Below, piece by piece: positions 1-58,444 of a stretch of DNA of 64,000 nucleotides. The notes under the pieces are model-generated. The model was not told the origin of the DNA. It was given only the letters and a program-made list of their open reading frames with translations, and searched no databases. The translations under genes were made by a program, and so were the position numbers. This DNA comes from Selaginella moellendorffii (lineage: Eukaryota; Plantae; Lycopodiophyta): positions 1,673,387 through 1,737,386 of the forward strand of contig NW_003314294.1 in NCBI RefSeq assembly GCF_000143415.4, read 5' to 3'. The number at the start of each line of letters is the position of its first letter. The first letter of the stretch is position 1.

Positions 1-3000
1 TGCTTGGCTAGACAATATACATGCCATAAATGATGACTGGTGTCTATCCGATCAAATGGCTTCTGATATACCGTTCTATCTGCCATTTGGTTGATTTCTG
101 CAGCCACCTCTTGGACTGGCCGGTTCTCTATCACCATCGCTCCAAGCCGTTTTGCAAGGTCCCCCAGAACATATGGTTTCTTCTCCCTAGTTTCCATATT
201 GCAAGAGATGGGATGCACTGCATATGTGTGCGTGTTCGCTGTAGTTTTAATCGGCGAGTCATCGATGATGAGGATTTCACTTGACCTAGCAGTCTGGTTC
301 ATCACTATAGCCTCTGGCTTGACGAAGATGGGTTTGCTACCCCTCACATGGACCATAGTCAAGCAATCCTCCTACGTTAGGAGAAAGTCAAATGGTAATA
401 TTACTCGCGTCTGATCGTGCATCATCTGTAACAACATTAATGCATTGTGGCGCATCATGGATGTCCAAACTCCCAATTGCAAATTGAACCCGGCCCTCTA
501 TTTTAAGTGTCGCATGGTCATTATTAAATCCCGCAGTTTCTCCCGTGTGATTAATGTGAATCTGTTTCTTTTGACCAACTTGCGACCGCAGGCTTTGGAG
601 GGTGCAGTGACATTCGAGGACGAGCCACGCTCATGGGAGAAAAGGACACCGTTCAGATCAAAAATGATACAGTACCTTCGCTGTGACTTTGAAATGAAAT
701 GCGTCAGCATAAAAAATGGTACAAGTCAATTTTACCATCTACAATATTAGCAAATGGTGCTCCCGATGGTCGTTGAGAGGGTTTTGGTCGAGGAAACGTG
801 AAGGGCGGAAATACTCTCCTCTGCAATGTGGGATCAATCGCATCCGATGGCGTGTGGGCACATGCCATTTCAGCTGTAGACTCTGGTACAACTGGCTCAA
901 CAGTGGCATGGGGTGGTTCCGATGGCATGTGATCACACGCCATTTCAGCTGGTGCCTCCGTTGGCAAAGTGGACATGACCGAACAGGCAGCAGGGGCGGT
1001 ATAGGGAGGTTCCAACGGTGCGTAGTCAGACGATTGGGCACACGTTGAGTCCGTTGGAAATGAGGATACGACCGGCTCGGCGGCTGGGCCGGCCTCATAC
1101 GGGTCCAATGGCGCCTGGTCACCGTCAGTTGGATACGTGGACAAGATTGACTCAGTGGTATGGGCAACATCAAGTGGAGCGTGGTCAGCTTGCTTGGCGT
1201 TGATATGGATAGTAGCCTCCACCAGCTCTGATGACTCTTGCAGGCAAGTAGAGTCCACTGGCAGATCCATATGCATGTCCAAATATCTCCCTTCGATTGA
1301 GATGGTATCCTCCCGTGCTACTAAAAACAAACTCATTAGCACATTGAATCGACTATACTGTATTTACCATCAACTGCTATTGAGGAACTAGGACCGATAT
1401 CACTTGGGCGCACTGCTGATTCTGAAGGATTGGACATACGTTTCGACCCTTGCTTGGCACTATCCTTCCTTGACACTAAAGGCTAGAGTTTGTATCTTAA
1501 TTCAACTGAATAATCTCTACTTACCATTTGCTTTGCGACCTACATGGACAATGTTAGAAATGGTAAAAAGTTAGGAATGGATGTACTATTATTTACCTGA
1601 TGGTTTGTCTTGTATGACCTTCCTCCGCTGCTCTTTGGCCACCTCAGGCTGGCCATCGTCGTCATCATCATCGTCGTCGTTATTGTGATCGTCACCATTG
1701 TGAGGACCATCCAAGTCCTCTTCGTCCTCCTCTTCTTCGTCCTCCTCTTCTTTGTCCTCCTCTTCGTCCTTCTGCTCTTCCTGCTCATTATCTTTCTCTG
1801 GCTCCTCATCCCCCTCTTGCATTTCTTCCATAGGCTGCTCAGGCTGGATGGCTTGTTCTTCCAGGACCATCTTGGGAAAATCATCTGGCCGAGTCTCCAT
1901 CTCAAAATACAAGACATCCATAGCCTGTTTTAGTGCGTGACCTAGGACCGTATCCTCACCCGACTGTCTTAACATGGTTTCTGCACGTTCTTGCACCCTT
2001 CGAAGACGACGAGATGAGAAAAACGTGGCCCTGACTTGAAAAACATCCCTCATCCATTGTACCTCTCCATTGAGATTGGGGAAGGGGAGTCCACCATAGG
2101 AATCTGAGTCAGGAGGTGGTGACTGGCTGCTTTCACTCAGCCCTTGATCTGCAATGAATGGCATGAGCACACACGCCATAACCGCGAGGCATTACCTATC
2201 ATCTTTTCGTTGCCCTTCTTCCTTTTCGAATCAAACGCCTCTGATCTCGACGACTGTCCAACGTGCTTTCGCTTTTTATGACCATTGTCAGTTTGAGCTT
2301 GGCTGGTGCTTGCCTGTTTTGCCTTTGAAGAAGTGTCTCCTGCAAGNNNNNNNNNNNNNNNNNNNNNNNNNNNNNNNNNNNNNNNNNNNNNNNNNNNNNN
2401 NNNNNNNNNNNNNNNNNNNNNNNNNNNNNNNNNNNNNNNNNNNNNNNNNNNNNNNNNNNNNNNNNNNNNNNNNNNNNNNNNNNNNNNNNNNNNNNNNNNN
2501 NNNNNNNNNNNNNNNNNNNNNNNNNNNNNNNNNNNNNNNNNNNNNNNNNNNNNNNNNNNNNNNNNNNNNNNNNNNNNNNNNNNNNNNNNNNNNNNNNNNN
2601 NNNNNNNNNNNNNNNNNNNNNNNNNNNNNNNNNNNNNNNNNNNNNNNNNNNNNNNNNNNNNNNNNNNNNNNNNNNNNNNNNNNNNNNNNNNNNNNNNNNN
2701 NNNNNNNNNNNNNNCACCTCTTCAATGGAGTTTGTCACCGCAACACACGGGACACCCTTGAGTAGTGCGGCTCGAAAGAATAATCCGCCGCAGTTGTACT
2801 CGACAACGCATTTGCCCTTGGAGTCGGAAGCAGGTGACCCACCCGCTATTGTGTTGAAGACCCAACTGAGCATTTCCCATGCTACACCTGGAGCTTTCTC
2901 TGGATTCGAAAGCTCCATAGCCGTCTTCAGTTCCTCAGGCACGGGTAAATTGACCTCCCTCAGATCAATTCGATCGGCCTTGTCAAACGAAGCTGGGAAG

Positions 3001-5257
3001 TCACTCCAGTCCCACTTTGCTGCAGGACCAATAACAAGGGCGAGTGTGAAGATGCGGACATTCATCGGTATCTTCTTCTTAGCCATTATCCCATGGATCT
3101 CCCGCATCTCCTTGCCTTTCAATCGAGCCTTCACCTCATTCAAGGCCTTCCAGAACTTGTGATAGGATTCGGAGTCGTAGATCATATAGTGGACTGAAGA
3201 TTCCACCTCCACAAGTCCCACCATTAAGTCAAAGATGGAGCTGACTTCGTCTGCATGAGTGATCTCCTCATTTGTGAAGTCCATCACACAAAAGATGTTC
3301 TTGACCTGCTCATCTCCGCGGGAAACGATGCTCCTCCACCTTTGATCCTCATCCGAATTCACGTATACCCGGTAAGGTTCTCGATAGGCCTCTGCTGCGG
3401 GGTCAAGCTGTTTCTGAAGCCGGCGGTCGACATTCCTCTTAATGAAATTTGGATACTGATCCAACTTCTCAGCTTTACTTTTTGTGGCATCCCGCAGCAG
3501 ATCGATGAACTTGGGGGCCCCCTTCACGTACTCGTCGATGTCTTCATTTGACAACTCCAGCTCTTCCATCATCTCTTGCGTGGTGTCGATGCTCACCCTC
3601 TCCACGGCCACTTGCTCGAAGATCCAATCCTTCAATAGCGCACGAGCTCTCAGAGTCGTGCACAAGTCCTCGTATGTCACAATATGGCCGAGAGTCATTT
3701 TGGTCTTGTTGAAGACTACCTCACCACGTAGAAGAGCATTAGCCACTGTCAGAAGGTCATCGTCGTCTAGAGACCGCGAGAAACGCAAGGCGTTGAGCTT
3801 CAAATCATTGGGCTTCCGGCCGTCCTCCACACCCATTGAGTTTAGCAACTCCCCGTCATGGTACCTCCTCAGCACATCTACCCATTTGTCAAAAACAACT
3901 TTTGTCGCGAGTAGAATGTTATGGATGCTGAGTGTGTCATTGACCCCCAATGTTTTCGAGAGAAGACTCGAGAATTCCTGCAATGGAAATGGCATGAGGC
4001 CACATGCTATGCCACATGCAACGAGGCTTACTTGCCAGGCGCTAGTTGCTAGTGCACGTCCTTGTCCTAGTTTTTGTGGCTTCTTCAGTTGAACCCAAAG
4101 CTTCCGTGTTCGTGCCAATGTCTCGTGTAGACCCGATTTGTAGCACGTTTCTTGCTTGACATTCTGCGCATGGGAGATGTATATGATAGATCGGAGGGGC
4201 GAGTTGCCTTTTATCAGGTGGACAACTCTTGTCTTGAAGACTTTCTTCACCTCCTCACCCACCATAATATCCACAACTATCTCTTGCATCGCCAAGCTAG
4301 AATGTTGCCCGGAGACGGCATAGAACCGGATGTTCTGCTCGTCCAACACCTTCCTATTGATCAAGTCTGGAAACCTCGTCTCGCCCTTCATTGTTCGGTA
4401 GTAGGGGATCACGTCTGCGATGTCGGGTGTTACTGGACTTGCCAGCATCTTCTGCTTCAGTTTCTCCACCCACTCATCAGATACTAGCCTGTGGTTGTAT
4501 TTGCTTTGGATGTCGATGTGGCTCACGTCGATTGTATATACTTTGTTGGAATAGTAATAAGTACTATTATCTGCGACGATTTTTGCTGCCTCTTCTTGCT
4601 CTTTCTGCTCTTTGCGGCTCTTCTTTTTGGTGGGTGTAGTGTTCGAACCCGAGGCAATGGCATCACCGAGTAGCTTCTTTTTTGGAGCAGGAGAGTCGGA
4701 CGTCGGCTTGAGCTTGACCACCCTTTTCTGCTTCGGGGTAGTTTCCAGATCGACCCCCTTCCCCTTCGCTTCGCGAACTGGAGTCACTCTCAACGGCTCA
4801 ATGTTGGAATATAGTTTTTGAACATCGCCGTAGGTGAGGTCCGTGGATTCCATGTGATCTTCATAGACCTGCAGCGTCTTTGAAATTGTGGGCCTCCTGG
4901 ACAACCTCTCCCTAGCTCCCTCTAGGAATTCCTCATAGCCGCTGCCCCCCTCCAAGAAGCCGCTAGGATGTGCAAGGTGGATCTTGAAGGCGGACGCTGT
5001 CTCTACCACAAGTGTCAGTCCATATTCTTGCATGGAACTGCATGGACTGTCTGTCACTTGGATGAGGATCCCCATGCATTCTTTTCTCCCACCATCTGTG
5101 TTGTACAGCCTCAGATCCTCGCCTTCCATCCCGAAAGTCCAACTAGTGAGCTCCTCCCCCTTCTCTGCATCCACATAGACAGTGGCTAGAAGAAGAACGC
5201 AATTCCTCGCCTGTTCAGAAATGCACAACAATTAGAGCTGACAGATGAAAAGCTAGC
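1..5257 (-). pseudogene. Cargo gene, array unit 1 (ParB-like / MTase-like / linker / FCP1-like); gapped and internally deleted
   Basis: Near-identical to 8107-14296. ORFs 2199..5231, 1589..2179, 704..1342 and 498..710 are exons of it. Confidence 0.8.
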
Positions 5258-6099
5258 NNNNNNNNNNNNNNNNNNNNNNNNNNNNNNNNNNNNNNNNNNN
5301 NNNNNNNNNNNNNNNNNNNNNNNNNNNNNNNNNNNNNNNNNNNNNNNNNNNNNNNNNNNNNNNNNNNNNNNNNNNNNNNNNNNNNNNNNNNNNNNNNNNN
5401 NNNNNNNNNNNNNNNNNNNNNNNNNNNNNNNNNNNNNNNNNNNNNNNNNNNNNNNNNNNNNNNNNNNNNNNNNNNNNNNNNNNNNNNNNNNNNNNNNNNN
5501 NNNNNNNNNNNNNNNNNNNNNNNNNNNNNNNNNNNNNNNNNNNNNNNNNNNNNNNNNNNNNNNNNNNNNNNNNNNNNNNNNNNNNNNNNNNNNNNNNNNN
5601 NNNNNNNNNNNNNNNNNNNNNNNNNNNNNNNNNNNNNNNNNNNNNNNNNNNNNNNNNNNNNNNNNNNNNNNNNNNNNNNNNNNNNNNNNNNNNNNNNNNN
5701 NNNNNNNNNNNNNNNNNNNNNNNNNNNNNNNNNNNNNNNNNNNNNNNNNNNNNNNNNNNNNNNNNNNNNNNNNNNNNNNNNNNNNNNNNNNNNNNNNNNN
5801 NNNNNNNNNNNNNNNNNNNNNNNNNNNNNNNNNNNNNNNNNNNNNNNNNNNNNNNNNNNNNNNNNNNNNNNATCATTCCTCAGACTTGAGCGCCACCATT
5901 AATTTCTGGATCGCCACGCACATGCATGCACGTGAAATCCAAAAGAAATCCGCAACGTCATCATTCCTCGGACTGCATGCACGCAAAATCCAAAAGAAAG
6001 ATCATGATTGGGATATAATTTAATACCCTCGCTATATTTATACCATGCATGATTGGATATTCCATGTTGGATGATAAAGAGTTCATCAGATGGGACCAA

Positions 6100-6352
6100 G
6101 TCGAAGATCAAGTCCAAGACCGACTCAGAGACCGAGTTTGAGATAGAGTCCGAAATCGAGTCCGAGGCCGACTCGGGGACCGAGTTCGAGACCGAGTCCG
6201 AGATCCGAAATTGGGTCCGAGACTGAGTCCGAGGTCGAGTCCGAGGTCGGGTCCGAGATTGGGTCCGAGATCGAGTCCGAGATCGAATCCGAGACCAAAT
6301 CCGAAGTCGGATCCAAAATTGAGTCCGAGATCGAGCCAGAGACTAAGTCCAA
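6100..6352. repeat. Degenerate 6-bp tandem repeat (GAGTCC/GAGACC/GAGATC); also at about 15095-15346 and 30150-30495
   Basis: Directly visible periodicity; it produces the spurious SD-rich and PR-rich ORFs. Confidence 0.9.
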
Positions 6353-7194
6353 ATACTAATACGGGTCAAGGGGTGAAAGCCCAAAGCGTGCGTGTCCCAG
6401 GGGAGGGGGGGGTGGGGGGGGGCTGCAGGGGGTTCCAAAAGTATAGTAGGGATAGTGAGGTCTATGAACTAGTTTTGAAGGGACTCTCCAGTGGGGCTTC
6501 CAAACCGACTTGAGGTTGAGACTAGGACCGAGGGGCCTTTGGTGGGAGTGAGTATGGACTTGGGTGGTGTTGGAGGGGCCATCCAAGGAAGTGCTCAAGA
6601 GCAGCTCCCACTCCCGAAAGGGAAACCGGCTACGGTGCTCCCGGCTCATGTGGAGTGGTGCCCCACTTGAGTACCATGCGGCTCATTGGTCCTCGCCCTT
6701 CCTAGGGGCTTGGGCCTTCCTTCGGGATGGAAGTGGGGGGGTAGAGGTACCCATACCGGGCTGTTAGGCCACGGTGTTTCGCCCCGGCGTCCCGAAGCAA
6801 GTGTTGCACTCAAGACTTGGGATTTAGAGGGTCCCATGATCAAGTCTTGTGGTACCAAGGGATGTTAGGAACCTGGAAGCTTGGTGTGCTTGGCTGCTTG
6901 TGCTTGCGGGGAGTGTAGCCGAACCTTAAGTCCAATCTAACCCGGGGAGGGGGATTGGGAGAGATTGGGAATTCGTGGATGGATGGCTAATGCTCTGTTG
7001 CTCGTGTAATGAATAGCTGAAACCAAGTAGAACCAAGTAGGAGTTGGTACCATAGGTGAGAACCTTGGCGAGGGAACTTAGCAAAAGCCAAAGCAGTGTC
7101 GGACGGATAGACGAGGTAAGCTGGCAAATTGGAAAGGAAAAATTTGTGGCTTACAAAAGGATGGCATAGTCGCTGGGTTGCCAGTAAAGAGAGG

Positions 7195-7215
7195 TTTAGG
7201 GTTTAGGGTTTAGGG
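7195..7215 (+). repeat. (TTTAGGG)3 interstitial telomeric tract; duplicated at 16189-16209
   Basis: tttagggtttagggtttaggg read directly. Confidence 0.9.
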
Positions 7216-7666
7216 TTCATCCGGTTGGAAGAAAGTTGCTCTAGAAAAGCTAGTGTGTTGTTGGCAAATGGTCGTAAGGATATCTCGGAAACGGCATGTC
7301 CAAATGAGGTGGTGTCTTCTGCTGTTTATGCACTGTATATGTGTCCGTGGTATGGTGTAAATGTGACCTTAAATGGAGATGTGCACAATGGTGAAAGAAT
7401 GAAAGATGCAAAATGGGCATCTAGAGGTAAGTGCGGGCAATACTATTGGAAGTGATTGGTGATGGAACTATGAGTGTAGATGATATGGAATGGGTGTGGA
7501 AAATGTGTGGGTATATTTATGGTAAGGGAAGGGCCAAAGAACTTGGAACATAGACCGAGCCAAACAAGGAACCTCCATACAAACGGCAATGCAGCCTAAG
7601 CATGAAATCCAAGGCATGGGCTGCGTTTGAGCAGGGAAGGGCGAGAGAAAGCAATTTCAACCTAAA

Positions 7667-10600
7667 GCTCTATTTTGTTAAAGTGGGAATTGTCATTATC
7701 CCACTTGTAAAATAAGGTTTCCAAACCTTTATATAGTATATAAATATAACAAAATTCAACTGTATTGAGGCACATGCCATTTTATTTTAAACAAGGAAAT
7801 GTCTACTCAATCACTTCTCCTCCCCCTGCCACTGCTTTACCTCTCTCTTCTCCTTGTCATCGTCGTCCAATTTCTTTCCATCCTTTTAATATTGGCTCAG
7901 TTGCTCCGAGTCTAGGTGGAGCCCAAGTCCCCATTCAATCTTTACTTTCCCCTTATTAATAAAACAACTTCGTAGACTTCCAATAACATGCTGTAACACT
8001 TCTAGTATAATGCAAATCCTCTCAAAGAATTGTCTTTTAATATTAATACAATGGCATGGAACCCCATGCCATAATAAGTTACATTTTTAAATAAATACAT
8101 GCCATCTCAGACTATTATTTTTTGCCTCCAACGCCTATACAATAATCTTGGAATTTCATCACTCTCCACACTATCAGGATTTAAACCCAATAGTAATGCC
8201 ATCTCTTCTCTAATACGTCCATGCTCATGTTCAGTGGTCGAAGAACCCATTCGGTTGAGCAGATTATGGAGATGCGGATAGTGCTTGGCTAGACAATATA
8301 CATGCCATAAATGATGACTGGTGTCTATCCGATCAAATGGCTTCTGATATACCGTTCTATCTGCCATTTGGTTGATTTCTGCAGCCACCTCTTGGACTGG
8401 CCGGTTCTCTATCACCATCGCTCCAAGCCGTTTTGCAAGGTCCCCCAGAACATATGGTTTCTTCTCCCTAGTTTCCATATTGCAAGAGATGGGATGCACT
8501 GCATATGTGTGCGTGTTCGCTGTAGTTTTAATCGGCGAGTCATCGATGATGAGGATTTCACTTGACCTAGCAGTCTGGTTCATCACTATAGCCTCTGGCT
8601 TGACGAAGATGGGTTTGCTACCCCTCACATGGACCATAGTCAAGCAATCCTCCTACGTTAGGAGAAAGTCAAATGGTAATATTACTCGCGTCTGATCGTG
8701 CATCATCTGTAACAACGTTAATGCATTGTGGCGCATCATGGATGTCCAAACTCCCAATTGCAAATTGAACCCGGCCCTCTATTTTAAGTGTCGCATGGTC
8801 ATTATTAAATCCCGCAGTTTCTCCCGTGTGATTAATGTGAATCTGTTTCTTTTGACCAACTTGCGACCGCAGGCTTTGGAGGGTGCAGTGACATTCGAGG
8901 ACGAGCCACGCTCATGGGAGAAAAGGACACCGTTCAGATCAAAAATGATACAGTACCTTCGCTGTGACTTTGAAATGAAATGCGTCAGCATAAAAAATGG
9001 TACAAGTCAATTTTACCATCTACAATATTAGCAAATGGTGCTCCCGATGGTCGTTGAGAGGGTTTTGGTCGAGGAAACGTGAAGGGCGGAAATACTCTCC
9101 TCTGCAATGTGGGATCAATCGCATCCGATGGCGTGTGGGCACATGCCATTTCAGCTGTAGACTCTGGTACAACTGGCTCAACAGTGGCATGGGGTGGTTC
9201 CGATGGCATGTGATCACACGCCATTTCAGCTGGTGCCTCCGTTGGCAAAGTGGACATGACCGAACAGGCAGCAGGGGCGGTATAGGGAGGTTCCAACGGT
9301 GCGTAGTCAGACGATTGGGCACACGTTGAGTCCGTTGGAAATGAGGATACGACCGGCTCGGCGGCTGGGCCGGCCTCATATGGGTCCAATGGCGCCTGGT
9401 CACCGTCAGTTGGATACGTGGACAAGATTGACTCAGTGGTATGGGCAACATCAAGTGGAGCGTGGTCAGCTTGCTTGGCGTTGATATGGATAGTAGCCTC
9501 CACCAGCTCTGATGACTCTTGCAGGCAAGTAGAGTCCACTGGCAGATCCATATGCATGTCCAAATATCTCCCTTCGATTGAGATGGTATCCTCCCGTGCT
9601 ACTAAAAACAAACTCATTAGCACATTGAATCGACTATACTGTATTTACCATCAACTGCTATTGAGGAACTAGGACCGATATCACTTGGGCGCACTGCTGA
9701 TTCTGAAGGATTGGACATACATTTCGACCCTTGCTTGGCACTATCCTTCCTTGACACTAAAGGCTAGAGTTTGTATCTTAATTCAACTGAATAATCTCTA
9801 CTTACCATTTGCTTTGCGACCTACATGGACAATGTTAGAAATGGTAAAAAGTTAGGAATGGATGTACTATTATTTACCTGATGGTTTGTCTTGTATGACC
9901 TTCCTCCGCTGCTCTTTGGCCACCTCAGGCTGGCCATCGTCGTCATCATCATCGTCGTCGTTATTGTGATCGTCACCATTGTGAGGACCATCCAAGTCCT
10001 TTTCGTCCTCCTCTTCTTCGTCCTCCTCTTCTTTGTCCTCCTCTTCGTCCTTCTGCTCTTCCTGCTCATTATCTTTCTCTGGCTCCTCATCCCCCTCTTG
10101 CATTTCTTCCATAGGCTGCTCAGGCTGGATGGCTTGTTCTTCCAGGACCATCTTGGGAAAATCATCTGGCCGAGTCTCCATCTCAAAATACAAGACATCC
10201 ATAGCCTGTTTTAGTGCGTGACCTAGGACCGTATCCTCACCCGACTGTCTTAACATGGTTTCTGCACGTTCTTGCACCCTTCGAAGACGACGAGATGAGA
10301 AAAACGTGGCCCTGACTTGAAAAACATCCCTCATCCATTGTACCTCTCCATTGAGATTGGGGAAGGGGAGTCCACCATAGGAATCTGAGTCAGGAGGTGG
10401 TGACTGGCTGCTTTCACTCAGCCCTTGATCTGCAATGAATGGCATGAGCACACACGCCATAACCGCGAGGCATTACCTATCATCTTTTCGTTGCCCTTCT
10501 TCCTTTTCGAATCAAACGCCTCTGATCCCGACGACTGTCCAACATGCTTTCGCTTTTTATGACTACTGTTAGTTTGAGCTTGATCTGCAAGAAATGGCAT

Positions 10601-13600
10601 GAGGACCCACGCAATAACCATGACGCTTTATTTCCCGTCCTTGGAGGCTCTGTCATGCCTTCCGCATCCTCAGGTACCTGCTCCTCAATTCCCTTTTGCT
10701 TTCGTTTCTTATGTGCCCGTTCTACAGAAATAGCATGAGGACATACGCGATAAGCACACAAATGCTTTTACCCTTCCTCCTCTGCCCTGGTCGGTTGTCC
10801 ATCTCTTTGTCTACAGCGTCTGAAAGCTGTTTTGCAGGTAGCCTAATTCGAGGTTCACGACGTCTCCTTGGCAATTGAACTGTATATTATTGCATCAACA
10901 CATGCAACATCCCATAATATTTTTAAGTTACCTTTCATAAAGTTTTCCATTGGTTCAACTTGTTCCCCTGAAATACAAACTTAGATAAATGCATGGGGCC
11001 ATATGTCATGATCGTACCTGTTTCGGAACTCTCCTTATCACTCTCTGAGGCCTCCCCCTCCTCCACTGGAGGCACGTTATTCCATTCGATTTCCTCGACA
11101 CGATCTGCAAGAACATTAGTTAATTGCATGGGGCCACACGCCATCAAACCTTCAGGTTCTTGTCGTGAGGTCTGCGCTGCTTGCCCTAGTCTCTTTGGAA
11201 TTTGAGCTGCAAGAAGCAATGGCATGAGAAATCACGTATAACAAAAATGATTGGTACCTCTCGTCCGTTGTACTTGGCTGGTGCTTGCCTGTTTTGCCTT
11301 TGAAGAAGTGTCTCCTGCAAGGAATGGCATGAGACCACACGCCATTGCAAATATAATTTGTACCTCCTTTTTTCCTATTGCTTCTCTGTTTGTCCTTCTT
11401 CGACGCGCCACTAATGCGCTTTTCAGTCCTCGTGTCTGAATATTCACAACGATCTATAATCAAAATGGCGTGAGGCCTCACGTGACCTTACCTTGTGCAG
11501 GTTGTGAGCTCGGCCCAACATGGGTATCTTCAACAGTAGCTGTTAATGCCGTTTCAGCATCTGGGGGTAGCCACGCTCCTGCATACAGAGCTTGTGAGAT
11601 AACATTTAAACTTAAAGTGCGTACTCACCAGGTTCGCAGAGAAGATACTGTTTTTCTTTGGCAACTGTAACTATATGCTCCATTGAAGTCACCTCTTCAA
11701 TGGAGTTTGTCACCGCAACACACGGGACACCCTTGAGTAGTGCGGCTCGAAAGAATAATCCGCCGCAGTTGTACTCGACAACGCATTTGCCCTTGGAGTC
11801 GGAAGCAGGTGACCCACCCGCTATTGTGTTGAAGACCCAACTGAGCATTTCCCATGCTACACCTGGAGCTTTCTCTGGATTCGAAAGCTCCATAGCCGTC
11901 TTCAGTTCCTCAGGCACGGGTAAATTGACCTCCCTCAGATCAATTCGATCGGCCTTGTCAAACGAAGCTGGGAAGTCACTCCAGTCCCACTTTGCTGCAG
12001 GACCAATAACAAGGGCGAGTGTGAAGATGCGGACATTCATCGGTATCTTCTTCTTAGCCATTATCCCATGGATCTCCCGCATCTCCTTGCCTTTCAATCG
12101 AGCCTTCACCTCATTCAAGGCCTTCCAGAACTTGTGATAGGATTCGGAGTCGTAGATCATATAGTGGACTGAAGATTCCACCTCCACAAGTCCCACCATT
12201 AAGTCAAAGATGGAGCTGACTTCGTCTGCATGAGTGATCTCCTCATTTGTGAAGTCCATCACACAAAAGATGTTCTTGACCTGCTCATCTCCGCGGGAAA
12301 CGATGCTCCTCCACCTTTGATCCTCATCCGAATTCACGTATACCCGGTAAGGTTCTCGATAGGCCTCTGCTGCGGGGTCAAGCTGTTTCTGAAGCCGGCG
12401 GTCGACATTCCTCTTAATGAAATTTGGATACTGATCCAACTTCTCAGCTTTACTTTTTGTGGCATCCCGCAGCAGATCGATGAACTTGGGGGCCCCCTTC
12501 ACGTACTCGTCGATGTCTTCATTTGACAACTCCAGCTCTTCCATCATCTCTTGCGTGGTGTCGATGCTCACCCTCTCCACGGCCACTTGCTCGAAGATCC
12601 AATCCTTCAATAGCGCACGAGCTCTCAGAGTCGTGCACAAGTCCTCGTATGTCACAATATGGCCGAGAGTCATTTTGGTCTTGTTGAAGACTACCTCACC
12701 ACGTAGAAGAGCATTAGCCACTGTCAGAAGGTCATCGTCGTCTAGAGACCGCGAGAAACGCAAGGCGTTGAGCTTCAAATCATTGGGCTTCCGGCCGTCC
12801 TCCACACCCATTGAGTTTAGCAACTCCCCGTCATGGTACCTCCTCAGCACATCTACCCATTTGTCAAAAACAACTTTTGTCGCGAGTAGAATGTTATGGA
12901 TGCTGAGTGTGTCATTGACCCCCAATGTTTTCGAGAGAAGACTCGAGAATTCCTGCAATGGAAATGGCATGAGGCCACATGCTATGCCACATGCAACGAG
13001 GCTTACTTGCCAGGCGCTAGTTGCTAGTGCACGTCCTTGTCCTAGTTTTTGTGGCTTCTTCAGTTGAACCCAAAGCTTCCGTGTTCGTGCCAATGTCTCG
13101 TGTAGACCCGATTTGTAGCACGTTTCTTGCTTGACATTCTGCGCATGGGAGATGTATATGATAGATCGGAGGGGCGAGTTGCCTTTTATCAGGTGGACAA
13201 CTCTTGTCTTGAAGACTTTCTTCACCTCCTCACCCACCATAATATCCACAACTATCTCTTGCATCGCCAAGCTAGAATGTTGCCCGGAGACGGCATAGAA
13301 CCGGATGTTCTGCTCGTCCAACACCTTCCTATTGATCAAGTCTGGAAACCTCGTCTCGCCCTTCATTGTTCGGTAGTAGGGGATCACGTCTGCGATGTCG
13401 GGTGTTACTGGACTTGCCAGCATCTTCTGCTTCAGTTTCTCCACCCACTCATCAGATACTAGCCTGTGGTTGTATTTGCTTTGGATGTCGATGTGGCTCA
13501 CGTCGATTGTATATACTTTGTTGGAATAGTAATAAGTACTATTATCTGCGACGATTTTTGCTGCCTCTTCTTGCTCTTTCTGCTCTTTGCGGCTCTTCTT

Positions 13601-15058
13601 TTTGGTGGGTGTAGTGTTCGAACCCGAGGCAATGGCATCACCGAGTAGCTTCTTTTTTGGAGCAGGAGAGTCGGACGTCGGCTTGAGCTTGACCACCCTT
13701 TTCTGCTTCGGGGTAGTTTCCAGATCGACCCCCTTCCCCTTCGCTTCGCGAACTGGAGTCACTCTCAACGGCTCAATGTTGGAATATAGTTTTTGAACAT
13801 CGCCGTAGGTGAGGTCCGTGGATTCCATGTGATCTTCATAGACCTGCAGCGTCTTTGAAATTGTGGGCCTCCTGGACAACCTCTCCCTAGCTCCCTCTAG
13901 GAATTCCTCATAGCCGCTGCCCCCCTCCAAGAAGCCGCTAGGATGTGCAAGGTGGATCTTGAAGGCGGACGCTGTCTCTACCACAAGTGTCAGTCCATAT
14001 TCTTGCATGGAACTGCATGGACTGTCTGTCACTTGGATGAGGATCCCCATGCATTCTTTTCTCCCACCATCTGTGTTGTACAGCCTCAGATCCTCGCCTT
14101 CCATCCCGAAAGTCCAACTGGTGAGCTCCTCCCCCTTCTCTGCATCCACATTGACAGTGGCTGGAAGAAGAACGCAATTCCTCGCCTGTTCAGAAATGCA
14201 CAACAATTAGAGCTGACAGATGAAAAGCTAGCAGCTAGAAATAACGTGAGGCCACACGCCATTCACCACTGCATTAGATGTCTTGAGGCTGCATCCTAAG
14301 ATGGCGTGAGGCTACATGCCATCTGTAACCGGACTGCACTCGAGAGCCCAATTGGTGCATGCCAATGTTGCTACTGAATGGCATGTGGCCTGATGCCATT
14401 TTCTACTTGGCCTAAAAGACTTACCATTTGAAGCCAAATGGAGGCGTGACAATCGAGGCTGGACTCGCTGGCGAATGTGCACTGTGTGTGTAGCGGATCG
14501 TAGCAGCAAGGCTACTCTGCCACTTACAGTTGGAGAGTGGCGCTGAAATCTCCTGGGACGCCAAGTGGGCTGCGTGTGGGTGGCGGAGTGGGCGGTGGAG
14601 TTGGTGGCAAAGTTACAAACTGGGTGTGTATTGAAGTGGACGCCGATGCACACGAGCGTGATGCGAGCGCGAGTGTGATGCAAGTGTGAGTGGACGCCGA
14701 TGCATATGAAAAACCTGTAGAGAAGGTAGATGAGCGCGAATGTGAGCGTGATCGTGAGTGGGAGCGCGATGCGAGCGCGAGTGTGCGAGCACGAGTACGA
14801 AGCAAAATGCAAAACCTAACCTCACACGCGCGAAATGTCACGACAGTTGGTAATCCCGCAACGTCATCATTCCTCGGACTTGGGTGCCACCATTAATTTC
14901 TGGATCGCCACGCACATGCATGCACGTGAAATCCAAAAGAAATCCGCAACGTCATCATTCCTCGGACTGCATGCACGCAAAATCCAAAAGAAAGATCATG
15001 ATTGGGATATAATTTAATACCCTCGCTATATTTATACCATGCATGATTGGATATTCCA
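7667..15058. mobile_element. Left arm of Sola-like TIR transposon (array unit 2), TIR at 7667-7688
   Basis: GCTCTATTTTGTTAAAGTGGGA at 7667; near-identical to 16661-24052. Confidence 0.9.
8107..14296 (-). pseudogene. Multi-exon cargo gene, unit 2: ParB/Srx-like + degenerate beta-class amino-MTase fold + charged microexon linker + FCP1/NIF HAD-like domain
   Basis: Main exon 14185-11629 with an in-frame 54-nt intron (12953-13006). It is followed by a run of phase-1 introns whose exons join in frame (one donor reads GA). The last exon has FDLNGVL, GVWTS, KPIFVK and IIDDSPIK motifs but two TAG stops. The 5' end and the join to the last exon are not resolved. Confidence 0.75.
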
Positions 15059-16660
15059 TGTTGGATGATAAAGAGTTCATCAGATGGGACCAAGTCGAAG
15101 ATCAAGTCCAAGACCGACTCAGAGACCGAGTTTGAGATAGAGTCCGAAATCGAGTCCGAGGCCGACTCGGGGACCGAGTTCGAGACCGAGTCCGAGATCC
15201 GAAATTGGGTCCGAGACTGAGTCCGAGGTCGAGTCCGAGGTCGGGTCCGAGATTGGGTCCGAGATCGAGTCCGAGATCGAATCCGAGACCAAATCCGAAG
15301 TCGGATCCAAAATTGAGTCCGAGATCGAGCCAGAGACTAAGTCCAAATACTAATACGGGTCAAGGGGTGAAAGCCCAAAGCGTGCGTGTCCCAGGGGAGG
15401 GGGGGGTGGGGGGGGGCTGCAGGGGGTTCCAAAAGTATAGTAGGGATAGTGAGGTCTATGAACTAGTTTTGAAGGGACTCTCCAGTGGGGCTTCCAAACC
15501 GACTTGAGGTTGAGACTAGGACCGAGGGGCCTTTGGTGGGAGTGAGTATGGACTTGGGTGGTGTTGGAGGGGCCATCCAAGGAAGTGCTCAAGAGCAGCT
15601 CCCACTCCCGAAAGGGAAACCGGCTACGGTGCTCCCGGCTCATGTGGAGTGGTGCCCCACTTGAGTACCATGCGGCTCATTGGTCCTCGCCCTTCCTAGG
15701 GGCTTGGGCCTTCCTTCGGGATGGAAGTGGGGGGGTAGAGGTACCCATACCGGGCTGTTAGGCCACGGTGTTTCGCCCCGGCGTCCCGAAGCAAGTGTTG
15801 CACTCAAGACTTGGGATTTAGAGGGTCCCATGATCAAGTCTTGTGGTACCAAGGGATGTTAGGAACCTGGAAGCTTGGTGTGCTTGGCTGCTTGTGCTTG
15901 CGGGGAGTGTAGCCGAACCTTAAGTCCAATCTAACCCGGGGAGGGGGATTGGGAGAGATTGGGAATCCGTGGATGGATGGCTAATGCTCTGTTGCTCGTG
16001 TAATGAATAGCTGAAACCAAGTAGAACCAAGTAGGAGTTGGTACCATAGGTGAGAACCTTGGCGAGGGAACTTAGCAAAAGCCAAAGCAGTGTCGGACGG
16101 ATAGACGAGGTAAGCTGGCAAATTGGAAAGGAAAAATTTGTGGCTTACAAAAGGATGGCATAGTCGCTGGGTTGCCAGTAAAGAGAGGTTTAGGGTTTAG
16201 GGTTTAGGGTTCATCCGGTTGGAAGAAAGTTGCTCTAGAAAAGCTAGTGTGTTGTTGGCAAATGGTCGTAAGGATATCTCGGAAACGGCATGTCCAAATG
16301 AGGTGGTGTCTTCTGCTGTTTATGCACTGTATATGTGTCCGTGGTATGGTGTAAATGTGACCTTAAATGGAGATGTGCACAATGGTGAAAGAATGAAAGA
16401 TGCAAAATGGGCATCTAGAGGTAAGTGCGGGCAATACTATTGGAAGTGATTGGTGATGGAACTATGAGTGTAGATGATATGGAATGGGTGTGGAAAATGT
16501 GTGGGTATATTTATGGTAAGGGAAGGGCCAAAGAACTTGGAACATAGACCGAGCCAAACAAGGAACCTCCATACAAACGGCAATGCAGCCTAAGCATGAA
16601 ATCCAAGGCATGGGCTGCGTTTGAGCAGGGAAGGGCGAGAGAAAGCAATTTCAACCTAAA
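15059..16660. mobile_element. LTR-derived fragment (duplicate of 6065-7666)
   Basis: Near-identical at +8994. Confidence 0.75.
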
Positions 16661-17100
16661 GCTCTATTTTGTTAAAGTGGGAATTGTCATTATCCCACTT
16701 GTAAAATAAGGTTTCCAAACCTTTATATAGTATATAAATATAACAAAATTCAACTGTATTGAGGCACATGCCATTTTATTTTAAACAAGGAAATGTCTAC
16801 TCAATCACTTCTCCTCCCCCTGCCACTGCTTTACCTCTCTCTTCTCCTTGTCATCGTCGTCCAATTTCTTTCCATCCTTTTAATATTGGCTCAGTTGCTC
16901 CGAGTCTAGGTGGAGCCCAAGTCCCCATTCAATCTTTACTTTCCCCTTATTAATAAAACAACTTCGTAGACTTCCAATAACATGCTGTAACACTTCTAGT
17001 ATAATGCAAATCCTCTCAAAGAATTGTCTTTTAATATTAATACAATGGCATGGAACCCCATGCCATAATAAGTTACATTTTTAAATAAATACATGCCATC

Positions 17101-20100
17101 TCAGACTATTATTTTTTGCCTCCAACGCCTATACAATAATCTTGGAATTTCATCACTCTCCACACTATCAGGATTTAAACCCAATAGTAATGCCATCTCT
17201 TCTCTAATACGTCCATGCTCATGTTCAGTGGTCGAAGAACCCATTCGGTTGAGCAGATTATGGAGATGCGGATAGTGCTTGGCTAGACAATATACATGCC
17301 ATAAATGATGACTGGTGTCTATCCGATCAAATGGCTTCTGATATACCGTTCTATCTGCCATTTGGTTGATTTCTGCAGCCACCTCTTGGACTGGCCGGTT
17401 CTCTATCACCATCGCTCCAAGCCGTTTTGCAAGGTCCCCCAGAACATATGGTTTCTTCTCCCTAGTTTCCATATTGCAAGAGATGGGATGCACTGCATAT
17501 GTGTGCGTGTTCGCTGTAGTTTTAATCGGCGAGTCATCGATGATGAGGATTTCACTTGACCTAGCAGTCTGGTTCATCACTATAGCCTCTGGCTTGACGA
17601 AGATGGGTTTGCTACCCCTCACATGGACCATAGTCAAGCAATCCTCCTACGTTAGGAGAAAGTCAAATGGTAATATTACTCGCGTCTGATCGTGCATCAT
17701 CTGTAACAACGTTAATGCATTGTGGCGCATCATGGATGTCCAAACTCCCAATTGCAAATTGAACCCGGCCCTCTATTTTAAGTGTCGCATGGTCATTATT
17801 AAATCCCGCAGTTTCTCCCGTGTGATTAATGTGAATCTGTTTCTTTTGACCAACTTGCGACCGCAGGCTTTGGAGGGTGCAGTGACATTCGAGGACGAGC
17901 CACGCTCATGGGAGAAAAGGACACCGTTCAGATCAAAAATGATACAGTACCTTCGCTGTGACTTTGAAATGAAATGCGTCAGCATAAAAAATGGTACAAG
18001 TCAATTTTACCATCTACAATATTAGCAAATGGTGCTCCCGATGGTCGTTGAGAGGGTTTTGGTCGAGGAAACGTGAAGGGCGGAAATACTCTCCTCTGCA
18101 ATGTGGGATCAATCGCATCCGATGGCGTGTGGGCACATGCCATTTCAGCTGTAGACTCTGGTACAACTGGCTCAACAGTGGCATGGGGTGGTTCCGATGG
18201 CATGTGATCACACGCCATTTCAGCTGGTGCCTCCGTTGGCAAAGTGGACATGACCGAACAGGCAGCAGGGGCGGTATAGGGAGGTTCCAACGGTGCGTAG
18301 TCAGACGATTGGGCACACGTTGAGTCCGTTGGAAATGAGGATACGACCGGCTCGGCGGCTGGGCCGGCCTCATATGGGTCCAATGGCGCCTGGTCACCGT
18401 CAGTTGGATACGTGGACAAGATTGACTCAGTGGTATGGGCAACATCAAGTGGAGCGTGGTCAGCTTGCTTGGCGTTGATATGGATAGTAGCCTCCACCAG
18501 CTCTGATGACTCTTGCAGGCAAGTAGAGTCCACTGGCAGATCCATATGCATGTCCAAATATCTCCCTTCGATTGAGATGGTATCCTCCCGTGCTACTAAA
18601 AACAAACTCATTAGCACATTGAATCGACTATACTGTATTTACCATCAACTGCTATTGAGGAACTAGGACCGATATCACTTGGGCGCACTGCTGATTCTGA
18701 AGGATTGGACATACATTTCGACCCTTGCTTGGCACTATCCTTCCTTGACACTAAAGGCTAGAGTTTGTATCTTAATTCAACTGAATAATCTCTACTTACC
18801 ATTTGCTTTGCGACCTACATGGACAATGTTAGAAATGGTAAAAAGTTAGGAATGGATGTACTATTATTTACCTGATGGTTTGTCTTGTATGACCTTCCTC
18901 CGCTGCTCTTTGGCCACCTCAGGCTGGCCATCGTCGTCATCATCATCGTCGTCGTTATTGTGATCGTCACCATTGTGAGGACCATCCAAGTCCTTTTCGT
19001 CCTCCTCTTCTTCGTCCTCCTCTTCTTTGTCCTCCTCTTCGTCCTTCTGCTCTTCCTGCTCATTATCTTTCTCTGGCTCCTCATCCCCCTCTTGCATTTC
19101 TTCCATAGGCTGCTCAGGCTGGATGGCTTGTTCTTCCAGGACCATCTTGGGAAAATCATCTGGCCGAGTCTCCATCTCAAAATACAAGACATCCATAGCC
19201 TGTTTTAGTGCGTGACCTAGGACCGTATCCTCACCCGACTGTCTTAACATGGTTTCTGCACGTTCTTGCACCCTTCGAAGACGACGAGATGAGAAAAACG
19301 TGGCCCTGACTTGAAAAACATCCCTCATCCATTGTACCTCTCCATTGAGATTGGGGAAGGGGAGTCCACCATAGGAATCTGAGTCAGGAGGTGGTGACTG
19401 GCTGCTTTCACTCAGCCCTTGATCTGCAATGAATGGCATGAGCACACACGCCATAACCGCGAGGCATTACCTATCATCTTTTCGTTGCCCTTCTTCCTTT
19501 TCGAATCAAACGCCTCTGATCCCGACGACTGTCCAACATGCTTTCGCTTTTTATGACTACTGTTAGTTTGAGCTTGATCTGCAAGAAATGGCATGAGGAC
19601 CCACGCAATAACCATGACGCTTTATTTCCCGTCCTTGGAGGCTCTGTCATGCCTTCCGCATCCTCAGGTACCTGCTCCTCAATTCCCTTTTGCTTTCGTT
19701 TCTTATGTGCCCGTTCTACAGAAATAGCATGAGGACATACGCGATAAGCACACAAATGCTTTTACCCTTCCTCCTCTGCCCTGGTCGGTTGTCCATCTCT
19801 TTGTCTACAGCGTCTGAAAGCTGTTTTGCAGGTAGCCTAATTCGAGGTTCACGACGTCTCCTTGGCAATTGAACTGTATATTATTGCATCAACACATGCA
19901 ACATCCCATAATATTTTTAAGTTACCTTTCATAAAGTTTTCCATTGGTTCAACTTGTTCCCCTGAAATACAAACTTAGATAAATGCATGGGGCCATATGT
20001 CATGATCGTACCTGTTTCGGAACTCTCCTTATCACTCTCTGAGGCCTCCCCCTCCTCCACTGGAGGCACGTTATTCCATTCGATTTCCTCGACACGATCT

Positions 20101-23100
20101 GCAAGAACATTAGTTAATTGCATGGGGCCACACGCCATCAAACCTTCAGGTTCTTGTCGTGAGGTCTGCGCTGCTTGCCCTAGTCTCTTTGGAATTTGAG
20201 CTGCAAGAAGCAATGGCATGAGAAATCACGTATAACAAAAATGATTGGTACCTCTCGTCCGTTGTACTTGGCTGGTGCTTGCCTGTTTTGCCTTTGAAGA
20301 AGTGTCTCCTGCAAGGAATGGCATGAGACCACACGCCATTGCAAATATAATTTGTACCTCCTTTTTTCCTATTGCTTCTCTGTTTGTCCTTCTTCGACGC
20401 GCCACTAATGCGCTTTTCAGTCCTCGTGTCTGAATATTCACAACGATCTATAATCAAAATGGCGTGAGGCCTCACGTGACCTTACCTTGTGCAGGTTGTG
20501 AGCTCGGCCCAACATGGGTATCTTCAACAGTAGCTGTTAACGCCGTTTCAGCATCTGGGGGTAGCCACGCTCCTGCATACAGAGCTTGTGAGATAACATT
20601 TAAACTTAAAGTGCGTACTCACCAGGTTCGCAGAGAAGATACTGTTTTTCTTTGGCAACTGTAACTATATGCTCCATTGAAGTCACCTCTTCAATGGAGT
20701 TTGTCACCGCAACACACGGGACACCCTTGAGTAGTGCGGCTCGAAAGAATAATCCGCCGCAGTTGTACTCGACAACGCATTTGCCCTTGGAGTCGGAAGC
20801 AGGTGACCCACCCGCTATTGTGTTGAAGACCCAACTGAGCATTTCCCATGCTACACCTGGAGCTTTCTCTGGATTCGAAAGCTCCATAGCCGTCTTCAGT
20901 TCCTCAGGCACGGGTAAATTGACCTCCCTCAGATCAATTCGATCGGCCTTGTCGAACGAAGCTGGGAAGTCACTCCAGTCCTACTTTGCTGCAGGACCAA
21001 TAACAAGGGCGAGTGTGAAGATGCGGACATTCATCGGTATCTTCTTCTTAGCCATTATCCCATGGATCTCCCGCATCTCCTTGCCTTTCAATCGAGCCTT
21101 CACCTCATTCAAGGCCTTCCAGAACTTGTGATAGGATTCGGAGTCGTAGATCATATAGTGGACTGAAGATTCCACCTCCACAAGTCCCACCATTAAGTCA
21201 AAGATGGAGCTGACTTCGTCTGCATGAGTGATCTCCTCATTTGTGAAGTCCATCACACAAAAGATGTTCTTGACCTGCTCATCTCCGCGGGAAACGATGC
21301 TCCTCCACCTTTGATCCTCATCCGAATTCACGTATACCCGGTAAGGTTCTCGATAGGCCTCTGCTGCGGGGTCAAGCTGTTTCTGAAGCCGGCGGTCGAC
21401 ATTCCTCTTAATGAAATTTGGATACTGATCCAACTTCTCAGCTTTACTTTTCGTGGCATCCCGCAGCAGATCGATGAACTTGGGGGCCCCCTTCACGTAC
21501 TCGTCGATGTCTTCATTTGACAACTCCAGCTCTTCCATCATCTCTTGCGTGGTGTCGATGCTCACCCTCTCCACGGCCACTTGCTCGAAGATCCAATCCT
21601 TCAATAGCGCACGAGCTCTCAGAGTCGTGCACAAGTCCTCGTATGTCACAATATGGCCGAGAGTCATTTTGGTCTTGTTGAAGACTACCTCACCACGTAG
21701 AAGAGCATTAGCCACTGTCAGAAGGTCATCGTCGTCTAGAGACCGCGAGAAACGCAAGGCGTTGAGCTTCAAATCATTGGGCTTCCGGCCGTCCTCCACA
21801 CCCATTGAGTTTAGCAACTCCCCGTCATGGTACCTCCTCAGCACATCTACCCATTTGTCAAAAACAACTTTTGTCGCGAGTAGAATGTTATGGATGCTGA
21901 GTGTGTCATTGACCCCCAATGTTTTCGAGAGAAGACTCGAGAATTCCTGCAATGGAAATGGCATGAGGCCACATGCTATGCCACATGCAACGAGGCTTAC
22001 TTGCCAGGCGCTAGTTGCTAGTGCACGTCCTTGTCCTGGTTTTTGTGGCTTCTTCAGTTGAACCCAGAGCTTCCGTGTTTGTGCCAATGTCTCGTGCAGA
22101 CCCGATTTGTAGCACGTTTCTTGCTTGACATTCTGCGCGTGGGAGATGTATATGATAGATCGGAGGGGCGAGTTGCCTTTTATCAGGTGGACAACTCTTG
22201 TCTTGAAGACTTTCTTCACCTCCTCGCCCACCATAATATCCACAACTATCTCTTGCATCGCCAAGCTAGAATGCTGCCCGGAGACGGCATAGAACCGGAT
22301 GTTCTGCTCGTCCAACACCTTCCTATTGATCAAGTCTGGAAACCTCGTCTCGCCCTTCATTGTTCGGTAGTAGGGGATCACGTCTGCGATGTCGGGTGTT
22401 ACTGGACTTGCCAGCATCTTCTGCTTCAGTTTCTCCACCCACTCATCAGATACTAGCCTGTGGTTGTATTTGCTTTGGATGTCGATGTGGCTCACGTCGA
22501 TTGTATATACTTTGTTGGAATAGTAATAAGTACTATTATCTGCGACGATTTTTGCTGCCTCTTCTTGCTCTTTCTGCTCTTTGCGGCTCTTCTTTTTGGT
22601 GGGTGTAGTGTTCGAACCCGAGGCAATGGCATCACCGAGTAGCTTCTTTTTTGGAGCAGGAGAGTCGGACGTCGGCTTGAGCTTGACCACCCTTTTCTGC
22701 TTCGGGGTAGTTTCCAGATCGACCCCCTTCCCCTTCGCTTCGCGAACTGGAGTCACTCTCAACGGCTCAATGTTGGAATATAGTTTTTGAACATCGCCGT
22801 AGGTGAGGTCCGTGGATTCCATGTGATCTTCATAGACCTGCAGCGTCTTTGAAATTGTGGGCCTCCTGGACAACCTCTCCCTAGCTCCCTCTAGGAATTC
22901 CTCATAGCCGCTGCCCCCCTCCAAGAAGCCGCTAGGATGTGCAAGGTGGATCTTGAAGGCGGACGCTGTCTCTACCACAAGTGCCAGTCCATATTCTTGC
23001 ATGGAACTGCATGGAGTGTCTGTCACTTGGATGAGGATCCCCATGCATTCTTTTCTCCCACCATCTGTGTTGTACAGCCTCAGATCCTCGCCTTCCATCC

Positions 23101-23290
23101 CGAAAGTCCAACTGGTGAGCTCCTCCCCCTTCTCTGCATCCACATTGACAGTGGCTGGAAGAAGAACGCAATTCCTCGCCTGTTCAGAAATGCACAACAA
23201 TTAGAGCTGACAGATGAAAAGCTAGCAGCTAGAAATAACGTGAGGCCACACGCCATTCACCACTGCATTAGATGTCTTGAGGCTGCATCC
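17101..23290 (-). pseudogene. Cargo gene, unit 3; extra TGG>TAG stop at 20981-20983
   Basis: ORFs 20981..23200 and 20606..20911 are the split 864-aa reading frame; downstream exons as in unit 2. Confidence 0.8.
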
Positions 23291-24119
23291 TAAGATGGCG
23301 TGAGGCTACATGCCATCTGTAACCGGACTGCACTCGAGAGCCCAATTGGTGCATGCCAATGTTGCTACTGAATGGCATGTGGCCTGATGCCATTTTCTAC
23401 TTGGCCTAAAAGACTTACCATTTGAAGCCAAATGGAGGCGTGACAATCGAGGCTGGACTCGCTGGCGAATGTGCACTGTGTGTGTAGCGGATCGTAGCAG
23501 CAAGGCTACTCTGCCACTTACAGTTGGAGAGTGGCGCTGAAATCTCCTGGGACGCCAAGTGGGCTGCGTGTGGGTGGCGGAGTGGGCGGCGGAGTTGGTG
23601 GCAAAGTTACAAACTGGGTGTGTCTTGAAGTGGACGCCGATGCACACGAGCGTGATGCGAGCGCGAGTGTGATGCAAGTGTGAGTGGACGCCGATGCACA
23701 TGAAAAACCTGTAGAGAAGGTAGATGAGCGCGAATGTGAGCGTGATCGTGAGTGGGAGCGCGATGCGAGCGCGAGTGTGCGAGCACGAGTACGAAGCAAA
23801 ATGCAAAACCTAACCTCACACGCACGAAATGTCACGACAGTTGGTAATCCCGCAATGTCATCATTCCTCGGACTTGGGTGCCACCATTAATTTCTGGATC
23901 GCCACGCACATGCATGCACGTGAAATCCAAAAGAAATCCGCAACGTCATCATTCCTCGGACTACATGCACGCAAAATCCAAAAGAAAGATCATGATTGGG
24001 ATATAATTTAATACCCTCGCTATATTTATACCATGCATGATTGGATATTCCAAAGCATCTTGTATTTCAAAAAATGCCAGATGTTCAGCTAAATAAAGGA
24101 CATGATGTGAAAAAGTTCA

Positions 24120-24140
24120 CCCTAAACCCTAAACCCTAAA
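24120..24140 (-). repeat. (CCCTAAA)3 telomeric/telobox tract between the divergent genes
   Basis: ccctaaaccctaaaccctaaa; equivalent position in copy B at 54267-54299. Confidence 0.9.
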
Positions 24141-54266: not shown

Positions 54267-54299
54267 TTTAGGGTTTAGGGTTTAGGGTTTAGGGTTTAG
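54267..54299 (+). repeat. (TTTAGGG)4.7 telomeric/telobox tract
   Basis: Read directly. Confidence 0.9.
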
Positions 54300-58442: not shown

Positions 58443-58444
58443 TT

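Follow-up and report, generated by a model that had tools for sequence, protein, structure and literature searches.

A stretch of 64,000 nucleotides in the genome of the lycophyte Selaginella moellendorffii (contig NW_003314294.1, positions 1,673,387 to 1,737,386; hereafter the window, whose own numbering is used throughout) contains a transposon, probably Sola1-like, in which the transposase is accompanied by an accessory gene and a dispersed 22-bp palindrome, ATGGCRTG-N6-CAYGCCAT. The accessory gene encodes a ParB/Sulfiredoxin (Srx) fold followed by a likely, and probably disabled, beta-class amino-methyltransferase fold. Its minus-strand open reading frame (ORF) at 14206-11612 comprises 864 amino acids and contains all peptides quoted in a preliminary description of the window. 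The motif table places them on the minus strand at 13507-13490 (IDVSHI), 13468-13451 (HRLVSD), 13288-13274 (SGQHS, in the ParB/Srx pocket), 13147-13136 (HAQN), 12271-12245 (IFCVMDFTN), 11875-11837 (EKAPGVAWEMLSW), 11788-11759 (KCVVEYNCGG) and 11731-11711 (GVPCVAV). An assembly or frame artefact was considered as the source of the feature and rejected.

The exon at 13007-14185 (-) encodes an N-terminal region to which no fold is assigned, a basic low-complexity linker and the ParB/Srx-fold domain. The 54-nt GT-AG intron proposed in the preliminary description (12953-13006, -) is in frame, lacks a stop codon and carries one palindrome (~12964). Its support comes from homology rather than RNA: the RefSeq Selaginella model P0015 joins WQ straight to EFES where the window has WQ and EFSS on the two sides of the intron, and in unspliced contigs the similarity of 10 homologous ORFs fades, or the ORFs end, near the 13006 donor, so that the junction appears common to homologs. 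Beyond it lie an all-helical, family-conserved middle region assigned to no fold (12359-12952, -) and the probable methyltransferase domain (11648-12358, -). The outer exon borders are readable in the sequence at 14185 (after AG) and 11629 (before GT). A predicted start codon at 14425-14427 (-) would end a first exon, being followed by GTAAGT and in frame with the exon at 14185. The predicted first intron (14186-14424, -) holds three palindromes (~14241, ~14301 and ~14378), whose positions were carried over from a 99.75% identical copy at an offset of 8994.

Terminal inverted repeats of 22 bp mark four transposon ends, at 7667, 16661, 27731 and 48663. The first (7667-7688, +) forms the accessory-gene end of the copy described above. 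A neighbouring copy of ~11 kb (16661-27731) retains both repeats (16661-16682 and 27710-27731) and displays the order repeat, accessory gene (-), DUF7869 transposase (+, E 5e-41), repeat; its accessory gene has a premature stop, and its transposase (25291-27092, +) is internally deleted. An inverted copy (48663-57296, terminal repeat at 48663-48684, +) carries a fuller transposase (49867-52956, -; DUF7869 E 2e-42) with the triad HDKMD/QTDNA/HEDVD and one stop, head-to-head with an accessory-gene copy that starts at 56118 (+). Sola1 transposases follow a D-D-D rule, and the Sola1-like assignment of the transposase draws on the three aspartate motifs and DUF7869; we found no mention of DUF7869 in the papers searched. 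The terminal repeat has AAAGTGG in common with the Bombyx mori Sola1_NA repeat, and Sola1 is listed for Physcomitrella. The Sola1 target duplication is a 4-bp AWWT; the flanks of the four ends read inward TAAA, TAAA, TAAA and TGAT, there is no duplication around 16661-27731, though the copies are rearranged. The preliminary description had called the gene cargo. Its place within the terminal repeats, beside the transposase, instead identifies it with high probability as the fixed second gene of a Sola1-like transposon, an accessory gene of a published kind.

The window contains four copies of the accessory gene. Three are in tandem at ~9 kb spacing, 99.4-99.9% alike and adjacent to assembly gaps, and are thus non-independent; they include a further copy at 2715-5257 (-), 99.9% identical and situated between two gaps. 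The fourth (56118-64000, +) is split by a 6.45-kb insertion (57297-63750) with 1146-bp direct terminal repeats 99.9% alike, related to 44011-45689. In the DNA run X1, which may come from the source sample, 57,840 contig records fall on 7000-16000, with a summed depth of 5-10 x 10^5 over most bins of the gene and far lower depth in 10612-11213; this depth shows many variant copies and is not a copy number.

The ParB/Srx domain (13007-13561, -) was assigned from a structural model, Foldseek and VIA structure searches, and the family alignment. The model, built from 14 sequences, has a confidence score (pLDDT) of 77. Foldseek returns Noc and ParB at E 3e-4 to 9e-4, and all 28 rows of its listing are members of the ParB/Srx group or uncharacterised proteins. 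VIA places PadC first among the named matches (Z 9.4, 98 aligned residues, 2.8 A), with KorB at 8.8, a ParB-N domain and SerK at 8.2 and Srx at 7.3. An Atlas feature search with residues 222-400 of the window protein (P0001) ranks a ParB_N cluster 25th (score 0.92; PF02195 on 35% of its members). Eukaryotic clusters and clusters of fungal DUF3723 proteins head its ranking, the latter being the nearest named ones (0.95-0.96); DUF3723, a family known from Starship elements, might thus be ParB-like too. Among profile searches, Pfam yields no family for P0001, NCBIfam and PHROGs name neither domain, and the sole profile match for the ParB part is DndB at E 0.052, obtained through the relative P0029. 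The ParB/Srx fold of the preliminary description is nonetheless confirmed beyond chance at the level of the structural model.

The pocket of this domain is conserved in an unusual form. All 14 aligned rows, which are 20-26% identical, have SGQHS and a downstream Asn (13138-13136), and an upstream Arg is present in at least 90%. The CTP-binding domains of bacterial ParB, Noc, KorB and PadC (7ol9, 7bm8, 7bnr, 8qa8 and 6ryk) have the fold of this N-terminal domain, and the Arg and Asn apparently match their P-motifs; the Selaginella domain differs from them in having GQHS, in all 14 rows, in place of the GERR box with its two arginines (an equivalence drawn from secondary structure), in an extra insertion before this motif, in its 10-15% identity and in that no ParA partner was seen. 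In Caulobacter ParB, residues R60, R103, R104, N136 and R139 are described as required for binding of cytidine triphosphate (CTP) (PMC8367383). Judged from the sequence, the accessory family appears to keep the first Arg and the Asn of the CTP pocket and to have replaced both box arginines, which makes canonical CTP binding doubtful. The near invariance of SGQHS, Asn and Arg across distant relatives suggests that the pocket looks altered rather than decayed, and points to selection.

The C-terminal part is harder to place. In a 440-residue model built from 11 sequences, the helical first 160 residues are good (pLDDT mostly 70-90) and the alpha/beta part is poor. Among 48,161 chains, VIA ranks the beta-class enzyme TTHA0409 (2zie) first, at Z 8.1 with 163 aligned residues and 4.3 A, over model residues 199-435; the next beta-class rows are M1.HpyAVI, M.BceJIV, M.RsrI, EcoP15I Mod, MboIIA, CcrM and rotifer N4CMT at Z 6.8-7.3, and the class accounts for rank 1 and eight others of the top 24 rows. 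When VIA is confined to Foldseek's top 1000, rows 1-7 are all beta-class amino-methylases. Across both searches the class spans Z 6.6-8.1, values that come from a low-confidence model and in a range where Z under 8 may reflect merely a common arrangement. As predicted, the strands and helices would follow the beta-class order, which opens with the motif IV Asp and closes with motif I. Motif anchors being set by eye, P0020 and P0025 keep a clear motif X spacing, and P0020 shares 9 of 22 ungapped positions over motif X to I with the phage methylase L001, the highest of eight enzymes whose identities range from 1 to 9 of 22. The C-terminal domain might alternatively be a degenerate HAD-type or other Rossmann-like domain and no methylase, since HAD hydrolases occupy many of the top 50 VIA rows (Z 6.3-7.6) and the methylase sequence tests are non-significant. 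We consider this unlikely: HAD alignments omit the first strand-helix unit (starting at ~220 against 199-201) and cover about 110-139 residues against 154-182 for the beta class, being 30-50 residues shorter; a HAD-like protein appears in a single row, at Z 5.2, of the VIA search among Foldseek's top 1000; and the K-x7-LI-x2-FT-x-PG-x2-V-x-D spacing of P0020 and the HPxxK of P0025 fit beta-class motif X-I. A beta-class fold, as the preliminary description proposed, is likely rather than proven: beta-class enzymes lead both VIA rankings, HAD hydrolases tie with them in one, and the Foldseek and sequence tests are non-significant.

Within such a fold, the catalytic motifs are largely gone. The protein differs from beta-class methylases in having no DPPY or SPPY, a shortened motif I and no significant sequence match to them. 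The motif IV Asp is kept in 6 of 6 rows shown and PP[YFW] is absent from all six, the residues that follow the Asp varying between lineages (DFTN, DLRR, DSAN, DATT and DANS). What is left of motif I in each of the 4 rows shown is an acidic residue plus a GG pair; the motif II acid occurs in Selaginella only. The C-terminal alignments hold no invariant column, unlike the ParB part, and were too variable for use in locus scans. The claim of dead motifs in the preliminary description thus holds for the methylase part, where DPPY is lost and FxGxG eroded, and finds no support in the ParB part with its invariant SGQHS. The retained Asp, acid and glycines could still belong to an active or S-adenosylmethionine-binding modifier that marks its own element with N4-methylcytosine (4mC) or N6-methyladenine at a non-canonical site, as proposed for an Ectocarpus gene. 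The protein of that alga figures in the literature as a predicted methylase (PMC12477816), and plants can use 4mC, as in Marchantia. With both prolines and the aromatic residue gone, free variation after the Asp and a C-terminal part devoid of invariant columns, this explanation is improbable; if the fold is that of a methylase, the protein is very probably catalytically dead.

The palindrome, counted with up to three mismatches, occurs 20 times in the copy at 16661-27731 and 16 times in that at 48663-57296, against none in the intervening 21 kb (27732-48662) and a Markov expectation of 0.35. The two main coding exons contain none. Palindromes lie mostly in introns and at element ends, many of them just before 3' splice sites, while others are found between genes and near the ends (54773-55146, 17045 and 48887); their density is equal in the accessory-gene introns and near the ends. 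Two fall in a downstream ORF (9128-9224, -), where they read MACDHMP and MACAHTP within a Pro/Thr/Ala-rich repeat. One lies in an intron at a position common to relatives, from which we infer that the palindromes were probably added to old introns.

The placement of these sites also allows a reading at the level of RNA, in which the palindrome forms a hairpin near 3' splice sites and a METTL14-like pseudo-enzyme or host factors control the splicing or stability of element transcripts. Of the 13 sites in the accessory-gene arm, 7 precede a YAG by 5-15 nt. The variable pair, read in the sense direction, is G-T at 15 and A-C at 4 of 30 sites (p 0.02, the sites being non-independent), an excess of G-U over A-C in transcripts whose sense hairpins are predicted at -10 to -14 kcal/mol. 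Many sites are intergenic or terminal, however; CpG deamination of a DNA site would give the same variable pair, local duplication can produce the orientation, and the gene lacks RNA-read coverage in two runs, so that we assign this explanation a low probability. With similarly low probability, the palindromes would serve the transposase or be relics, and the gene would have another role, for instance encoding an enzyme that uses nucleotides in the manner of Srx, SerK or SbnI, or would be an inert passenger. The GxH pattern is nearer to these enzymes than to GERR, and Srx, SerK and SbnI also match the ParB-domain model (Z 5.9-8.2); the abstract of a 2026 preprint further describes transposases that themselves activate cognate copies. 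Yet ParB, Noc, KorB and PadC match the model best in structure, the palindromes are as dense in accessory-gene introns as near the ends, and in red-algal elements ParB genes and inverted-repeat arrays are described as co-occurring with a different transposase.

ParB dimers recognise palindromic DNA. When a ParB-fold gene shares its element with a palindrome that is restricted to that element, the two are most simply seen as a protein and its site, and the loss of DPPY implies that the protein would bind rather than methylate; a conserved but altered ParB pocket, together with the lost methylase motif, likewise suggests binding as the function retained. We thus favour, with a probability of roughly 0.55, an accessory gene of a Sola1-like transposon that combines a ParB fold with a likely disabled methylase and binds the element's own 22-bp palindromes. 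The mechanism taken separately, namely binding of these palindromes to control or shield the element with no methylation of DNA, comes somewhat short of even odds. Recognition of the two-fold site would fall to a dimer, which probably uses the helical middle region, as ParB does; the altered pocket may act as a ligand-controlled or structural dimer switch; and the pseudo-methylase could dock on the CpG-containing palindrome arms without catalysis. The likely outcome would be that copies are kept transcribable or that a transposition complex is assembled, as with VANC and TnpA-type proteins; in regulating or shielding its element, the accessory protein may resemble VANC, which acts via intronic and terminal motifs (PMC5735166). 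The idea of a non-catalytic reader put forward in the preliminary description is plausible and gains the palindrome as a candidate target.

A number of observations weigh against palindrome binding by a ParB-pseudo-methylase protein. No helix-turn-helix was identified in the accessory protein, the transposase could equally be the palindrome binder, and the sense orientation of the palindrome fits an RNA hairpin equally well. The copies differ from the decayed one at 56118 by 5 synonymous and 18 replacement substitutions, with no signal of purifying selection. Two RNA runs, of which ~12% each was used, give zero depth over 10311-13922, and the coding exons are without depth save for a trace at the 5' end. 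As regards the methylase fold, the corresponding region of the model reaches a pLDDT of only about 25-65, Foldseek finds no match at E<=0.001 for the C-terminal model in PDB or viral libraries, and HAD hydrolases, at up to Z 7.6, come within less than one Z unit of the methylases in the VIA search. Alignment of profiles with hhalign gave P 0.047 and a probability of 1% against methylases, though the aligned segment is exactly that from motif X to II; a trimmed rerun scored 14.9, within the shuffled range (maximum 18.4). A profile of 12 methylases, from 13 references chosen via a methylase-like fragment just outside the element, gave the window protein no score, and the placing of motif anchors by eye adds to these doubts.

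Among relatives of the protein, a full HMMER scan found 13 at E<=0.001, of which 11 were used (P0007 and P0010 were left out as probable low-complexity matches), and a profile search added five; identity is 17-26%, and the named relatives come from Selaginella moellendorffii and Calypogeia fissa. The preliminary description had regarded the gene as phage-type and horizontally acquired. Scans and tblastn found no relatives in phages, viral contigs or prokaryote genomes: neither P0001 (best E 0.7) nor P0020 had a meaningful tblastn match in phages, and among 66 and 52 metagenome, 11 viral-contig and 39 prokaryote-genome pattern matches of the locus scans L014 alone passed, which proved to be a chance match just beyond the stop of a bacterial transporter-like gene and was dropped. 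A word-based protein search with the window protein retrieved 0 of 7998 candidates, and sequence searches of PDB gave chance matches only. Both folds may be of prokaryotic origin, with older eukaryotic transposons probably the nearer source. Recent transfer from a phage was rejected, as these searches showed no phage relative, and so was the capture of a host gene.

As far as the accessible portions of the respective papers go, the closest described counterpart is the accessory gene of Sola1-1_Ec32 in Ectocarpus (PMC12477816), which likewise codes for a single protein with a ParB-like and an N4C/N6A methylase-type domain and, in a large element, is read from the other strand than the Sola1 transposase. 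The Selaginella gene differs in belonging to a land plant and in the loss of motif IV in all members shown; its element has ~20 palindromes, none being mentioned for Sola1-1_Ec32, and the likeness lies in domain design and gene layout. PAG3 of Plavaka (EnSpm) elements in Bostrychia (bioRxiv 10.1101/2025.02.11.637652) is also a transposon accessory gene with a ParB-like N-terminal domain; it has inverted-repeat arrays nearby and is proposed to bind its own element. Unlike the Selaginella gene, it carries a 2OG-oxygenase, and the methylase is encoded by PAG2 instead. Its element has a transposase from a different superfamily, and its repeats form a tandem series next to the gene, where those of the Selaginella element are scattered through introns. 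The anti-silencing protein VANC of the Mutator-like VANDAL elements in Arabidopsis (PMC5735166) is a second protein encoded by its element, with short motifs concentrated in intronic, intergenic and terminal non-coding DNA, but has an unrelated MAIN-like fold, non-palindromic motifs of 8-9 bp and demonstrated activity, where the Selaginella gene is known from sequence. Marchantia DN4MT1, compared by text only, keeps TSPPY, and ParB is mentioned neither in the available text of its preprint nor in that of an Arabidopsis atlas. Inactive methylases are known in DIRS transposons (PMC4738411). We found no report of a ParB-methylase accessory gene from land plants in titles and abstracts, although supplements of the algal papers and Repbase may list plant members. 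The gene is a land-plant, probably catalytically dead variant of this recently described kind.

A broader interpretation, which we regard as rather unlikely, is that a Sola-like transposon family of non-seed land plants turned bacterial ParB/parS-style loading into a device of self-recognition, in which a ParB dimer, its pocket re-tuned away from CTP, would load at intronic palindromes and the dead methylase would read or mask their CpGs against host silencing. If so, plants would have, besides VANC, a second and unrelated system against silencing, one that would explain the mass amplification of the element. A similar role was proposed in 2025 for ParB-type accessory genes of algae, with no tests reported in the accessible part of that source. 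The element offers a compact test case, with one protein, one sharp 22-bp site, many copies, and lycophyte and liverwort relatives; it might represent both a programmable-looking DNA reader and a route for transposon expansion in large plant genomes.

Downstream of the main exons, 8985-11628 (-) is predicted to consist of short introns and of small exons whose coding potential is charged and of low complexity, and likely makes up the 3' portion of the accessory gene; most of its short introns hold a palindrome 5-15 nt before YAG. The accessory arm closes, on its 3' side, with an interrupted ORF (8107-8990, -) that contains the peptides CIIFDLNGVL and ILIIDDSP. It presumably resembles an FCP1/HAD phosphatase domain, for which a Pfam search gave no match, and may be the last domain of the same gene. 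Over 8107-8990, most of the X1 depth departs from the window's letters at a number of positions, 8781 within one stop codon among them. In 5872-24052, the accessory arm and a retro-like fragment are duplicated in tandem (9 kb, 99.75% identical), beside runs of N at 2347-2714 and 5258-5871; this represents either a recent duplication or an assembly artefact. The window also holds retrotransposon remains.

The start of the transposase (52400-52950, -, and 25291-25830, +) contains two repeats weakly like Transposase_23 (E 0.03-0.04), and a palindrome-bearing probable intron lies near 51100-51230. Just outside the terminal repeat lies a fragment (27945-28292, +; HCSPK...LFCPPKGIVLDATAGFGS) of another gene of beta-class methylase type, better preserved than the first, whose 5' part is gone at the element's end. 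It matches Pfam N6_N4_Mtase at E 0.009 and a PHROG DNA methyltransferase at E 5e-4, its best phage and plasmid matches are mostly methylases, and it shows no match to the accessory-family profile. Short runs of the plant telomere unit occur at 24120-24140, 54267-54294, 7195-7215 and 16189-16209, one within the element between both genes and one in the flanking retro-like piece. Upstream of the accessory gene, a 39-base piece (14492-14530, also at ~23486-23524 and 55790-55830) attracts ~170 and ~110 RNA reads. Rfam found nothing in it; the loose ends of these reads seem to resemble large-subunit ribosomal RNA, and the piece appears to be a captured ribosomal RNA fragment fixed in the element.

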